64,000 nucleotides of DNA, from assembly GCA_934254825.1 (NCBI GenBank), contig CAKQMB010000015.1, positions 1,950 to 65,949 on the forward strand, written 5' to 3'. The position numbers and the translations under genes were made by a program. Of this stretch, positions 7,036-48,385 are shown in pieces (the stretch's first letter is position 1; every line of letters begins with the position of its first letter). This DNA is from an uncultured Clostridia bacterium (GTDB lineage: Bacteria > Bacillota > Clostridia > Christensenellales > Borkfalkiaceae). The notes beneath the pieces were generated by a model that was not told where the DNA came from, made no database searches, and saw nothing but the letters and a program-made list of their open reading frames with translations.

Positions 7036-7061
7036 AAAAGTCGGGCTATAAGTCGATTAAC
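7036..7061 (+). repeat. dispersed 26-nt repeat, copy a
   Basis: aaaagtcgggctataagtcgattaac, intergenic between the glycosylase gene and the met leader. Confidence 0.85.
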
Positions 7062-7163
7062 AAGCGAAATTTACAATCATTAAACCATTTATTGAATGGA
7101 TTTGCGAGCAATATTATGGTTTTAAGGCGAGCGAAAAAATATTTTTTTAAAGGCGAAAAACGC

Positions 7164-7193
7164 TTGACAACGCCGCCTTGACAATGGTAATAT
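7164..7193 (+). promoter_or_regulatory. sigma-70-type promoter of the metNIQ leader
   Basis: TTGACA, 18 nt, then TGgTAATAT (extended -10). Confidence 0.5.
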
Positions 7194-7415
7194 GAATTCA
7201 CCGACGGGAGGAAAACCCTCTTTTCGGATTTTTAAAGGAGCGACGATTTGTCGGCAAACGTTATGAAAAATAGTTTTGTAGTTTCTATGCGAATGTTAAC
7301 ATCCCGGGCATTTATGCGCGGGCTTATTGCCGACCGCTTTTCGGATACTTCGGATATATAAGCCTTAACGCGAAACCTTGCCCGGGACTTTTTATTGAGT
7401 TCCGGGCTTTTTTTA
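7194..7415 (+). promoter_or_regulatory. about 220-nt structured leader ending in an intrinsic terminator (attenuator/riboswitch candidate, class unresolved) upstream of metN
   Basis: Terminator GCCCGGGAC-tttttattgag-TTCCGGGC followed by a T-run (TTTTTTT, 7380..7415) lies 25 nt before the metN RBS. Methionine transporters are classically riboswitch/T-box controlled, but I could not match the SAM-I or T-box consensus. Confidence 0.45.
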
Positions 7416-45236: not shown

Positions 45237-45452
45237 GGAGTTGCTCCTGTTTGCGTCCGACAAGAATACGCGTTCCGACAACGTTTTGGAATGATCCGAA
45301 ATTATTCTTGGTCGGCATCGATACCGCATTATAGCATAAAACTGCAAAAAAAGCAATATTAAAATGTAATTTACGGTATTTACAATTACAAGGTTATGCT
45401 TTATAATACCGATAAGCCGTTTTGCGGGACGGACGGCGGTAAGAAGGAAAGA

Positions 45453-46988
45453 ATGATGAAAAAAATACAATGCGTCGCAACACCCGAGCTTTCGCCTTAT
45501 CCGTTTTGGAGTTGGAACGAAAAGATGAATCCGACGGAATTGAAAAGACAAATCGACGAGATGAAAAAGGCGGGTTACGGCGGATTTTTTATGCATTCGA
45601 GAGTCGGTCTCGTGACGAAATATTTGTCGGACGAGTGGTTTTCGCTTATACGGGAAGCGAGCGTTTATGCGTATTCCGTCGGAATGGACGCTTATATTTA
45701 CGACGAAGATATGTGGCCGTCGGGCTATGCCGGAGGGGAAGTCGTGAAAAGGCGACCCGATTTCAGACATTGCGTTCTTGCCTGCGTTACGGAAGCGCAG
45801 CTCGAACCCGAAGACGAAATCGCGGACGTTCTTTCGGACGGGCGAAAAATAGTCGTAAGAATGTCTCGAAAAAGTTATAAACGGTTTAACGATTCGAGTT
45901 ATATAGACACTTTAAATCCCGCAGCCGTCCGATTGTTTTTAGAGACGACCCACGAACTGTATCATAAAAAAGTCGGAGACTTATTCGGTAAGGAAATAAA
46001 GGGGATTTTCACCGACGAACCATGTTATAACTGTTCGCTGTACGGAGTGCCGAACGTCGTTTACTCGCCTGTACTCAGAGAAAAAATATTAAGAGAAGAA
46101 GGGTTCGATATTCTCGAAAAAGCCGCTTTGCTCTTTGAAAACAAGGGCGATTATAAAGAGGTAAGAAGAAAATATTACACGAAAGCCGGCGAGCAGTTCA
46201 GAACAAGTTATTTCGGGCAGTATTCCGAATGGTGCAAAGCTCACGGGCTTCTTTTTACGGGGCATGTCGGCAACGAAGACAGCATGCGAGGACAGATTGC
46301 GGCTCAGGGGAGCGCAATGGCGTGTTATAAATACTTCGATTACCCCGGAGTGGACAAACTTCAACGGGGATTGTGGCAATTTGCGGCGATAAAACAGCTC
46401 GATTCTGCCGCGTCGATTTTCGGGAAAAAAGTAAAATTATGCGAGTGTTTCGGCGGGATAGGTCAGGAATGCGGGATAGTCGGGAGAAAACGAATAACCG
46501 ATTGGCTCGTATCTCTCGGGATAAATCTGATAAATCCGCATTTAACGCCGTATTCGTTGCGCGGAGAGAGAAAACGCGACTATCCGCCCGCGATAGGTTG
46601 GCAACAGCCGTGGTGGGGAGAAGAGGCGGTTTTCTCGGCATACACGAGAAGAATTTGCAAAATGTTTTTCGGTGCGGAAGAGGCTGGCGGACGTGTCCTT
46701 GTCGCGGAACCTCTTTTGTCCGTCGCCGCGAGATATACGCCCCTTAAAGAATACGATGAAACAGATTCGGTCGATAATCGCTTTGCCGAGTTGGTTAAAA
46801 CGCTCGTAAAATCGGGCGTACCTTTCGATATCTGCGACGACGCGGTTTTGTCCGAATATGCGAAAGAGGAAAACGGGAAATTCGTTTTAGGCTCAAAAAC
46901 TTACAATACGATTATTTTGCAAAACTGCGAAAACCTTCCCGGGCGCGTTGTCGATATTTTTAACAAATGCGGATTAATCGACTTATAG
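45453..46988 (+). CDS. glycoside-hydrolase-like protein, N-terminal part of a split gene (GH106-like/'glycosyl hydrolase' family, from memory)
   Basis: The start is ATG 45453, behind AAGGAAAG. PYPFWSWNEKMNPTELKRQIDEMKKAGYGGFFMHSRVGL..YLSDEWF. The ORF ends at a TAG located inside dispersed-repeat copy g. Confidence 0.7.
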   Translation: MMKKIQCVATPELSPYPFWSWNEKMNPTELKRQIDEMKKAGYGGFFMHSRVGLVTKYLSDEWFSLIREASVYAYSVGMDAYIYDEDMWPSGYAGGEVVKRRPDFRHCVLACVTEAQLEPEDEIADVLSDGRKIVVRMSRKSYKRFNDSSYIDTLNPAAVRLFLETTHELYHKKVGDLFGKEIKGIFTDEPCYNCSLYGVPNVVYSPVLREKILREEGFDILEKAALLFENKGDYKEVRRKYYTKAGEQFRTSYFGQYSEWCKAHGLLFTGHVGNEDSMRGQIAAQGSAMACYKYFDYPGVDKLQRGLWQFAAIKQLDSAASIFGKKVKLCECFGGIGQECGIVGRKRITDWLVSLGINLINPHLTPYSLRGERKRDYPPAIGWQQPWWGEEAVFSAYTRRICKMFFGAEEAGGRVLVAEPLLSVAARYTPLKEYDETDSVDNRFAELVKTLVKSGVPFDICDDAVLSEYAKEENGKFVLGSKTYNTIILQNCENLPGRVVDIFNKCGLIDL

Positions 46989-48385
46989 AGGGGTTTTTTG
47001 ATTGTGATTGCACGGGTGAAAAGCTCGATATGGACGATTTTGTCAAAAAATACGGTAACGGGCGCAAAATAAAAAGTGAGTACGTTAAAGACGAAAGTTT
47101 TTCCGACGGCTTCGGTTGCGGAGTTCTTGCGACCGAAATAAAAACGAAAAACGGCTTGCTGATGTTTATATGCAACACCGAAAACAGAGAAGTCGAATTT
47201 TCCGTTGCAGACTTTTCCGTTACCGAATTTTCCGTTGCGGACAAGTCTCCGTTTTGGGTGGCGGATCATACGGACGGCGTTTGTTTCCGCGGCGAAAAGC
47301 CGCAAGGCGTACTCTCGCCGTTCGGAAGCGTTACTCTGTTTTTCGGAGACGATTTGTTTTTCGGAAATAATTTAAACGAAAGGGACTACGTTCCCGTGAA
47401 AAGCAGATTTTATTCTTCCGACGGTTGTATTTTCGGAAATGGCGGCTTTATTGCCGATTTAAAAAAAGAAAACGGATTTTCCGTTCGTTTCGGGGCGAAT
47501 ATGCTGCCGATAAACGTCGTCGATTTTAAAACCGAACACGTCGATTTGAAAAACGTCGATCTGTCGGAGATAAGGCACAATTATTTCTATCCGTTAAACG
47601 ACGGAGAGAATTTCGAGGTCGTTTATCGCTTTAAAGCGGAGACTGTCCCCGAAGAAGCGTTCGCTGCCATGGAAAATGCCGAAAATCTCGACGAAATAAT
47701 CGTAAACGGACGGAAAATCGTCCCGAACAGAAAACGCGGAGAAGAACAGATTTTTGACGAAAACTGTTTTATAGATCAATCGTTTTTAAAGACGGATATC
47801 GCTTTTGCGTTGAAAACGGGCGATAATTATATAAAGATAAAAGGGAAAAAGGTCAACAACATCACGGGAGCGGGAATGCATAGAAGCGTAGACTCGCGCG
47901 AAAACGCGACGGAGGCGGAAACCGCGTATATAATCGGTCGGTTCGGCATTAGAAAGATAAACGGAGAAAACGTTATGGTAAAGGAAAATCCGTCCGACGC
48001 GGAGACTTACCCTTATTACAGCGGCGAAGTTGTCGCGGAAAAAACCGTTTGCATTCCGCCCGCAAAGCCAAACGAGGGCGTTTATATCTCGTTAAAAAAC
48101 GGAAACTACGCCTCTGCCGAAGTTTTCGTGAACGGAAAATCGGCGGGCAAAAAGTTTGTCTTTCCCGCGTTTTTCGACGTTACGGAGTATCGCGGGCAGA
48201 CGGTCGAAATAACGGTGAAAATGAAAAACACGTTATTTTCTCTGTTCGGACCGCACGATATTTTGTCGTACGAAAAATTAAAATGGGTCGAGCCGCGCGT
48301 TTTCAACGACATCGGGCTGAAAGGAGAGGAAAAAACGGAGAAATTCGATACGGGAGAAATAGTGATAACGGTTGTCGGGCGGTGA
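46967..48385 (+). CDS. C-terminal part of the split glycoside-hydrolase-like gene (beta-sandwich/jelly-roll-like)
   Basis: 472-aa ORF, shifted in frame relative to 45453..46988 and overlapping its end. The two parts together are about 980 aa, as expected for this family. Tail: ..YYSGEVVAEKTV..ASAEVFVNGKSAGKKFVFPAFFDVTEY. Confidence 0.65.
   Translation: MRINRLIEGFFDCDCTGEKLDMDDFVKKYGNGRKIKSEYVKDESFSDGFGCGVLATEIKTKNGLLMFICNTENREVEFSVADFSVTEFSVADKSPFWVADHTDGVCFRGEKPQGVLSPFGSVTLFFGDDLFFGNNLNERDYVPVKSRFYSSDGCIFGNGGFIADLKKENGFSVRFGANMLPINVVDFKTEHVDLKNVDLSEIRHNYFYPLNDGENFEVVYRFKAETVPEEAFAAMENAENLDEIIVNGRKIVPNRKRGEEQIFDENCFIDQSFLKTDIAFALKTGDNYIKIKGKKVNNITGAGMHRSVDSRENATEAETAYIIGRFGIRKINGENVMVKENPSDAETYPYYSGEVVAEKTVCIPPAKPNEGVYISLKNGNYASAEVFVNGKSAGKKFVFPAFFDVTEYRGQTVEITVKMKNTLFSLFGPHDILSYEKLKWVEPRVFNDIGLKGEEKTEKFDTGEIVITVVGR
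46972..46999 (-). repeat. dispersed repeat, copy g (at the break point of the hydrolase gene)
   Basis: gattaatcgacttatagaggggtttttt. The same variant subtype as copy f (..cgacttatagagg..ttttt). Confidence 0.8.

Follow-up and report, generated by a model that had tools for sequence, protein, structure and literature searches.

A clade-specific repeat with a 16-bp core and phased A/T arms, probably a chromosome-organising site, in uncultured Christensenellales-related gut bacteria

Where topoisomerases are placed along the chromosome has, in model organisms, been answered only statistically, via degenerate motifs and REP elements. According to the twin-domain model, positive supercoils arise at the ends of transcription units and in the gaps between convergent genes, whereas those between divergent promoters are negative; the REP/BIME and RIP elements of enterobacteria are bound by architectural proteins and gyrase. 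The gyrase motif of E. coli covers 130 bp that are symmetric about a 4-bp staggered cut, with a 36-bp centre, two 47-bp arms and a periodicity of 10.75 bp, and the enzyme shows enrichment both downstream of transcribed units and within BIME-2 repeats (PMC6379681), while gyrase structures display a 35-bp G-segment and 49-bp wraps (PMC13284261). Here, we describe a dispersed repeat in a 64,000-nt stretch of DNA, referred to as the window, from an uncultured Clostridia bacterium of the Borkfalkiaceae (assembly GCA_934254825.1, contig CAKQMB010000015.1, positions 1,950 to 65,949). Judged from its sequence and distribution, the repeat is probably an undescribed chromosome-organising site, possibly a gyrase-positioning one, and neither a promoter nor an RNA or mobile element.

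With the E. coli gyrase motif and with strong gyrase sites (SGS; Mu SGS, pSC101 par, the y-REPs of BIME-2) the repeat shares a two-fold symmetric block of ~36 bp, A/T triplets on either side of a 4-bp centre, shoulders rich in G/C, arms whose phasing exceeds 10.5 bp per turn and enrichment downstream of transcription units; like BIME-2 it forms a dispersed family at operon ends. It departs from gyrase sites in that its 16-bp core is near-invariant and asymmetric, its arms are longer and its inner arms lie ~3 bp out of phase, and from BIME-2 and strong gyrase sites in that there is no REP palindrome, a third of the copies are intragenic and the role of gyrase is putative. REP/BIME and RIP elements are likewise short and conserved and number in the hundreds, at operon 3′ ends and in convergent gaps, but the present sites have no palindrome or hairpin, are not strictly extragenic and evolve in place rather than by copying; because of the missing palindrome and the intragenic copies, we do not consider them members of the REP/BIME family. 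A RAYT- or transposase-like open reading frame (ORF) was not found between inverted pairs of sites, the only intervals searched. The sites recognized by partition and terminus systems (parS, the Noc-binding site NBS, matS and Ter) are similar in being ~14-23 bp long, spread across the chromosome in genic and intergenic positions and conserved across species. Those families comprise tens of sites and not hundreds, however, and parS, NBS and matS are palindromes while Ter is polar with replication; the motif described here is neither. Finally, the uptake signal sequence (USS) of Haemophilus and the DNA uptake sequence (DUS) of Neisseria are, like this repeat, asymmetric, over-represented, strand-neutral and clade-specific words with dialects, which originate in place by point mutation, are tolerated in particular reading frames, show a 3′-end bias and are flanked by A/T tracts. 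The repeat differs from them in being ~10x sparser and much longer, in its symmetric phasing over ~170-190 bp and in its Gram-positive-type host lineage.

A near-invariant core confined to one clade

The repeat in the window is real. Six exact copies of its 12-mer core CTWTAAGTCGAT are present, where dinucleotide-preserving shuffles lead one to expect 0.01, and CTATAAGTCGAT likewise occurs 6 times exactly against 0.01 expected; a mismatch-tolerant search adds a copy one base off (TTATAAG; copy e in Table 1) and another within leuS. When the window was scanned with a position-weight matrix trained on relatives outside it, exactly 8 sites were returned at 34-45 bits, with no intermediate scores between these and the rest (the runner-up reached 10.8, and the maximum in shuffled sequence was 18.5). 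The original prediction, made from the letters of the window, had listed seven copies with this core. All seven were recovered at their positions and on their strands and, with about 0.01 sites expected, their frequency is far above chance; the total of seven was too low, as the leuS copy is an eighth. A "weaker relative" that had been proposed at 37097 is not a site according to the matrix scan, nor is a 1-mismatch match at 50990.

Outside the window, the 16-mer CTATAAGTCGATTAAC was found in more than 110 stretches of a species-representative genome collection, nearly all of them from gut or rumen metagenome-assembled genomes (MAGs) labelled Clostridia, Clostridiales or Christensenellaceae. 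Across the family, the pattern reads AAAA-N7-CTATAAGTCGATTAAC-N5-TTTT, and the logo of 163 instances reads AAAA(-11..-8)-N7(G/C-rich)-C-TATAAGTCGAT-TAAC-G-N4-TTTT(21..24). In a less biased set, A1, T2, A3 and T10 are 100% invariant, A12 99% and G8 98%, and position 13 is A or T; individual clades use core "dialects" (TTAAC, TTATC, TTATT, TTAAA). Two direct AAGTCG half-sites, which had been noted in full copies, turned out to be a local feature: the upstream AAGTCG is exact in 10 of the 163 members and present with at most one mismatch in 42, and recognition via two direct half-sites is accordingly not supported.

The range of the motif was determined in loci fetched through LeuRS and hence blind to the motif. 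Where LeuRS identity to the window was at least 93%, 21 sites were present in 127 kb; there were 6 in 51 kb at 86-92% and 15 in 218 kb at 79-85%, none in the 541 kb of Christensenellaceae MAGs at 68-73%, and 1 in 388 kb of Clostridium. The boundary is sharp and NadE-based loci agree, so that the motif is restricted to one Christensenellales-related clade of uncultured gut bacteria, in which motif-blind samples give a density of about 1 site per 6-15 kb. In the sister Christensenellaceae the repeated 11-mers were low-complexity A/T only, with no other motif among them. Single matches in 6 of 2.9 million viral contigs represent chance level, on which ground a phage origin was discarded, and in the literature library searched the motif sequence was found solely as a chance match, with no description of the site. 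Whichever function holds, the motif is a sharp marker for this clade. Of note, six motif-bearing contigs that clearly belong to it (L031, L078, L084, L088, L112 and L115) are labelled Acidiphilium, Parasutterella or Subdoligranulum, and these unrelated labels probably reflect mislabelled or mis-binned MAG taxonomy.

Phased arms, placement and origin of the sites

The core is an asymmetric 16 bp, C-TATAA-GTCG-ATTAA-C, in which two flexible A/T blocks are arranged about a 4-bp G/C centre, and it constitutes the dyad of a 36-bp block that runs from A-tract to T-tract. Averaged around the sites, A/T content oscillates regularly and locked to the motif, with peaks that are mirror-symmetric about position 6.5-6.8, the centre of GTCG. 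In a profile of 237 de-duplicated sites, folded between T6 and C7, the peaks lie 4.5, 15.5, 25, 36, 48.5, 60, 71 and 83.5 bp from the dyad, with weaker ones at 95 and 105; the innermost pair corresponds to the TATAA and ATTAA blocks of the core and the second pair to the A and T tracts. Peak spacing is ~10.5 bp up to 36 bp and ~11-12 bp further out, and the oscillation falls from an amplitude of ~0.05 at 19-52 bp to 0.04 at 52-85 and 0.02-0.03 at 85-118, with noise beyond. To either side, two-fold symmetric phasing extends over ~85-95 bp.

With the 36-bp block excluded, the periodic power of the flanks was 0.022-0.031, as against a mean of 0.004 and a maximum of 0.0084 for 200 sets of random anchors. 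The phasing was seen separately in 49 deep-coding and 94 intergenic sites and recurred, its peaks at unchanged positions, in an independent set of 54 sites taken from motif-blind loci. It was 3.5-10x stronger than at the anchors AAAA, TATAA, AAAA-N28-TTTT or W5-N4-W5, and the generic genomic periodicity of ~11 bp was for this reason dismissed as the source of the arms. The core is centred in a two-fold symmetric stretch of ~170-190 bp with anisotropic bendability, and this phased A/T anatomy suggests that the DNA is bent or wrapped on a protein surface.

Location statistics were based on gene calls from a simple codon-usage gene caller built for this analysis. Of 153 classifiable sites, 86 (56%) are intergenic, in 12% of the DNA (P about 1e-38). 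Sixty-one of these lie between tandem genes, 34 with the motif in the sense orientation of the upstream gene and 27 with it in antisense; convergent gaps hold 24 sites (14 expected) and divergent gaps 1 (14-19 expected, P no more than 3e-6). The bias was replicated in motif-blind loci, where 43 of 75 sites in 537 kb were intergenic (25 tandem, 16 convergent and 2 divergent, the last against 8.9 expected; P = 0.0035). About one-third of the sites lie deep inside well-scoring genes. There, they are confined to stop-free frames, TAT AAG TCG ATT (Y-K-S-I; n=22) and GTT AAT CGA CTT ATA (V-N-R-L-I; n=31), and in 10 cases the motif supplies the stop codon of a gene. The sites thus occupy the ends of transcription units, within tandem and convergent gaps, as well as coding stretches that tolerate them.

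The original prediction had proposed to examine association with gene ends, which the above bears out, and strand or replichore bias, of which there was none: 74 sites run along the GC skew and 92 oppose it, no bias against the gene strand was seen either, and neighbouring copies share their orientation in 31 of 55 pairs. A polarity of the Chi or KOPS kind was ruled out by these figures. Clade-wide conservation, avoidance of divergent promoter regions and the long phased A/T arms go beyond what that prediction had described.

Conservation was assessed in relatives found through NadE, MetQ or LeuRS and not through the motif. At orthologous positions the cores are invariant while the flanks are ~50% identical or unalignable. 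Copies d, e, f and the leuS copy are retained in L111 and L119 with altered N7 spacers, that of copy e included, and altered outer flanks. Five species retain copy a in the same position, upstream of the met promoter, and seven retain copy b just 3′ of metQ, with 14 of 16 core columns invariant in an alignment of 50% mean identity. For copy d, a 23-nt stretch is invariant in 4 genomes in which adjacent codons have been rewritten and TilS identity drops to 60%. The history of the leuS copy could be traced across 80 LeuRS loci: the loop reads G/S-Y-K-P-E-K in outgroups (TATAAACC...) and G-Y-K-S-I-K in one subclade (GGCTATAAGTCGATTAAA), and the subclade of the window carries the partly decayed versions CCGATTAAC and CCGTTTAAC. 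These variants show that the copy was built in place by point substitutions (GYKP-EK to GYKSIKE) and, therefore, that sites are gained and lost in this manner. Existing sites are held by purifying selection at the nucleotide level, which is strong even inside essential genes.

Readings of the site

The repeat is a chromosomal recognition site that acts as double-stranded DNA and not as RNA, because it shows neither strand bias with respect to genes and GC skew nor complementarity or covariation between its flanks. The interpretation that we favour, though tentatively and with somewhat less than even confidence, is that of a positioned topological site that wraps DNA, in the manner of strong gyrase sites or BIME-2, as its anatomy is gyrase-like and its distribution fits the prediction of the twin-domain model. 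The DNA at such a site would be built for sharp bending and wrapping on a protein, and each site would position a complex that wraps DNA at the flank of a transcription unit where positive supercoils accumulate. The core might be read by the DNA gate of gyrase, with a 4-base staggered cut at A|GTCG; alternatively, an adaptor or nucleoid protein specific to the clade might recognize it. The geometry would be nearest to that of a strong DNA gyrase site, the role ascribed to BIME-2 and Mu SGS in E. coli. In their centres, the E. coli gyrase consensus has TAT-NNNN-ATA followed by G/C-rich shoulders and the present motif TATAA-GTCG-ATTAA followed by G/C-rich N7 and N5; the arm period of ~10.8-11.5 bp lies beside the 10.75 bp of the E. 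coli motif, and the folded A/T profiles of the two are positively correlated over 0-12 bp (r = 0.53) and again over 34-65 bp (r = 0.48). Published determinants of S. pneumoniae gyrase and topoisomerase IV include -2A, +1G, +3C and +6T (PMC2094056), and these match when the cut is placed by the dyad of A/T symmetry (A|GTCG); among the matching positions are A3 and T10, which are 100% conserved in the less biased set.

Several observations weigh against this interpretation. At 12-34 bp the folded A/T profile is ~3 bp out of phase with the E. coli consensus (r = -0.32), positions -1, +4 and +5 mismatch the pneumococcal preferences, and the arms extend ~85-95 bp as compared to the 66 bp of gyrase. 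Gyrase motifs are degenerate, while the 16-bp core, near-invariant and asymmetric, carries ~2x the information needed for roughly 250 sites and therefore indicates a dedicated sequence-specific reader or a drive process; no candidate for a reader protein was identified in this analysis. About a third of the sites lie inside genes, where a function at operon ends has no obvious use, and the location bias is equally well explained by survival of sites where they are least harmful. Sequence matches are what would speak for gyrase itself acting at the sites. It is the near-invariant core, the arms reaching beyond the gyrase footprint and the survival-where-harmless alternative that keep our confidence modest. 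If the wrapping or gyrase interpretation is true, the site would offer a natural, sequence-defined handle on topoisomerase placement and the boundaries of supercoil domains. A bolder proposal, which we regard as doubtful although worth stating, is that of a sequence-addressed particle, in which the 16-bp address would place a wrapping complex of ~170-190 bp (gyrase, alone or together with an adaptor, or a novel nucleoid protein) at fixed positions at hundreds of transcription-unit ends as hard-wired supercoil-domain boundaries, or else that the repeat could represent the first DNA uptake signal with sequence specificity in the Bacillota.

Two other functions were considered, and both strike us as unlikely. 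The site could be a high-affinity target of a clade-specific bending protein (IHF-, HU- or Lrp-like, or new), which without any topoisomerase would set a U-turn at the apex of a supercoiled loop and insulate transcription units as a domain boundary or roadblock; E. coli provides a precedent in the IHF sites inside BIME-1/RIP elements at operon ends. A pair of invariant TpA-rich blocks separated by ~10 bp, A and T tracts placed symmetrically at +/-16, phasing that is planar with a 10.5-bp period across the inner ~72 bp and has a period of ~12 bp thereafter, and the position of sites at transcription-unit ends all agree with such a protein, whose direct readout of the core would suit the high information content, and an apical U-turn of this kind is no less compatible with the anatomy. 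On the other hand, a stable roadblock would harm the intragenic third of the sites (tilS, leuS, alr), and a regular-expression scan for HU signatures in 1.7 Mb, a sample too small to be conclusive, gave no candidate. IHF itself was set aside, as the core fits its consensus (WATCAANNNNTTR, with an upstream A-tract) at only 7/9 positions by eye, unscored, the reverse strand AATCGACTTATAG missing the conserved A of ATCA and the TT. Of the protein-binding families suggested in the original prediction, the general notion of a double-stranded recognition site holds and the nucleoid-protein type fits best, a recombinase target is disfavoured, and a partition protein does not apply, because canonical parS occurs separately in the clade: the motif is unrelated in sequence to the 16-bp palindrome TGTTNCACGTGAAACA that clusters near the origin, and parS was excluded on this basis. 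In L009, a genome of the clade, a 1.7-kb segment (5677-7340) carries four canonical sites of the parS-like kind (TGTTTCACGTGAAACA with 1-2 mismatches). The other possibility, also raised originally and still the main rival, is an uptake-signal-like sequence, such that competent cells prefer DNA carrying the motif and biased uptake with recombination, a molecular drive, creates and keeps tolerated copies. We rate this, too, as rather improbable, although much of the evidence is shared with USS and DUS: strong over-representation with no strand bias, the clade dialects, origin by point mutation within the variable protein loop of LeuRS, coding copies limited to the stop-free frames YKSI(N) and VNRLI, a ~2-fold excess of information, A/T tracts flanking the core as in the Haemophilus USS, the merely chance-level matches among viral contigs, and a preference for 3′ ends with one inverted pair forming a hairpin. 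Density and the symmetric arms stand against it. USS and DUS occur at ~1 per kb, about ten times the 1 per 6-15 kb of the motif-blind samples; 16 bp with phased arms to ~90 bp exceeds by far what known uptake receptors read, and such specificity has no rationale in a Gram-positive envelope lacking a secretin. To our knowledge, sequence-specific DNA uptake is not known in Bacillota. A regular expression for prepilin-type genes found none in 1.7 Mb of clade DNA, which at ~0.7 genome is too small to conclude from, and a comFC-like gene is present in L014. If correct, the uptake reading would extend self-specific DNA uptake to Gram-positive-type gut bacteria. Inverted close pairs after a gene are an arrangement typical of Neisseria DUS; in L086 (1692-1732) two inverted copies with 24 nt between them make up a perfect hairpin immediately past the end of a gene, and such pairs are rare, with two (24 and 79 nt apart) among 166 sites.

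Readings of the repeat as a mobile element, promoter or RNA fare much worse than either of these. That it is a recombinase target or attachment site, or the scar or end of a miniature mobile element, is very improbable. It is true that copies b and c share 21 identical bases (TCGGTCTATAAGTCGATAAAC) as direct repeats around a 1.27-kb toxin-antitoxin-like module that is absent from relatives, and that the metQ-tilS region is rearranged among species. Yet the flanks hold no direct-repeat signal and thus no target-site duplication, nothing is conserved outside the 36-bp block, only housekeeping genes lie between inverted pairs and no recombinase or transposase near them, and orthologous sites are conserved, with copies made by point mutation. 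The same absence of target-site duplication, shared flank and transposase, together with the leuS copy, speaks against the very small mobile or insertion-prone element that had been envisaged, and likewise against miniature inverted-repeat transposable elements. In L210, the single copy has a right flank homologous to that of copy b. The right flank of copy b is hence ancestral, which argues against insertion by recombination at the motif and led us to reject insertion of a cassette between copies b and c. The interval itself (10153-11456) contains a helix-turn-helix (HTH)-SocA/Panacea gene and a 105-aa gene, both missing in relatives that keep only copy b. Least credible of all is a promoter (for example a sigma-28-like TAAA-N15-GCCGATAA), an RNA element or an intrinsic-terminator loop, a possibility effectively refuted by the location and covariation tests. 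The resemblance of GTCGATAA to a sigma-28 -10 box is offset by an A-run that lies ~16 nt, not 19, from the GTCGAT box (~3 bp too close), by near absence from divergent promoter regions and abundance between convergent genes, and by the use of either orientation relative to the upstream gene (34 vs 27). The A-run and T-run flanks might suggest a terminator loop, and 17 predicted hairpins around 92 intergenic sites do enclose the whole core; but swapping right flanks among instances moved the predicted energy only from -2.97 to -2.78 kcal/mol, complementarity between left and right column pairs reached a maximum z of 2.6 in 266 tests, no stem covariation was seen, and Rfam found tRNAs only in the window and nothing at the motif. 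With no general pairing and a minority of copies in loops, the hairpin was abandoned; separate, ordinary terminator hairpins are often located 30-50 nt from a site. The original statements that the element is neither palindromic, a REP hairpin, a terminator nor a promoter are therefore upheld.

Copies in the window and neighbouring features

The eight copies are listed in Table 1. Their adjoining genes are unrelated in function: a uracil-DNA glycosylase (UDG)-family gene with metNIQ, the HTH-SocA/Panacea module, an MmeI-like restriction-modification system, tilS/hpt, leuS, yitT, and mazF/nadE. Three copies touch coding sequence, those in tilS and leuS and the stop/start overlap of copy g, and not two as had been counted.

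Table 1. Copies of the repeat in the window, with the position of the T of TATAAG, matrix score and setting
Copy	Block	Strand	T of TATAAG	Core	Score	Setting
a	7036..7071	+	7047	7046-7061, CTATAAGTCGATTAAC; A-tract, N7, core, N5, T-rich	40.3	3′ of UDG-family gene, ~100 nt upstream of metN promoter
b	10153..10188	+	10164	10163-10178, CTATAAGTCGATAAAC	33.7	between convergent metQ and HTH-SocA gene, immediately beyond metQ terminator
c	11421..11456	+	11432	11431-11446, CTATAAGTCGATAAAC	34.3	between 105-aa gene (-) and MmeI-like methylase (+)
d	18514..18549	-	18538	18524-18539	44.8	within tilS, antisense; codons GTT AAT CGA CTT ATA (V-N-R-L-I), linker preceding TilS_C domain
leuS copy (eighth)	20945..20980	-	20969	20955-20970, CTATAAGCCGATTAAC	34.5	within leuS, sense orientation; G-Y-K-P-I-N, hypervariable LeuRS loop; partly decayed site
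e	24402..24437	-	24426	24412-24427, TTATAAGTCGATTAAC	37.1	between yitT and mazF, adjoining yitT terminator hairpin
f	27353..27388	-	27377	27363-27378, CTATAAGTCGATTATC	41.1	begins 19 nt past nadE stop codon, ahead of a hairpin
g	46963..46998	-	46987	46973-46988, CTATAAGTCGATTAAT	35.5	overlaps stop codon of ORF 45396-46988 and possible start of ORF 46967-48385

The left flank of copy a had been reported to recur, and it does: the 13-mer AAATTTCGAAAAG is present at 6443-6455, upstream of the UDG-family gene, and at 7028-7040, abutting copy a. It contains the palindrome TTTCGAAA and lies outside the family consensus. Downstream of this copy, at 7150-7394, metN is preceded by a sigma-70-like promoter (TTGACAA ... 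TGGTAATAT) and a leader of ~230 nt, which shows strong conservation across 8 species and has a terminator-like hairpin at its end. The leader had no Rfam match even at E no more than 1 and is a candidate for an undescribed riboswitch or attenuator of the methionine ABC transporter.

Beyond copy c, at 11929-14221, an MmeI-like methylase/restriction system of the Eco57I type is divided between two overlapping ORFs. Its homologues in the relatives L192 and L193 are found on the opposite side of the met operon, and from this displacement we regard the metQ-tilS interval as a variable island. Further along the window, six consecutive genes at 30312-42576, five of which encode proteins of 505-977 aa, lie in a 19.6-kb stretch with zero copies of the motif; five of the six products have a short N-terminal match to camelysin/TasA-like proteins (Peptidase_M73). 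Between copies e and f (24659-27344), a PemK/MazF-family toxin gene ends 10 nt before a gene for NAD synthetase with an extra N-terminal HTH of the Cro/C1 type (residues ~65-125). This extension is confined to the NadE homologues of the clade and could be an antitoxin-like domain fused to NadE.

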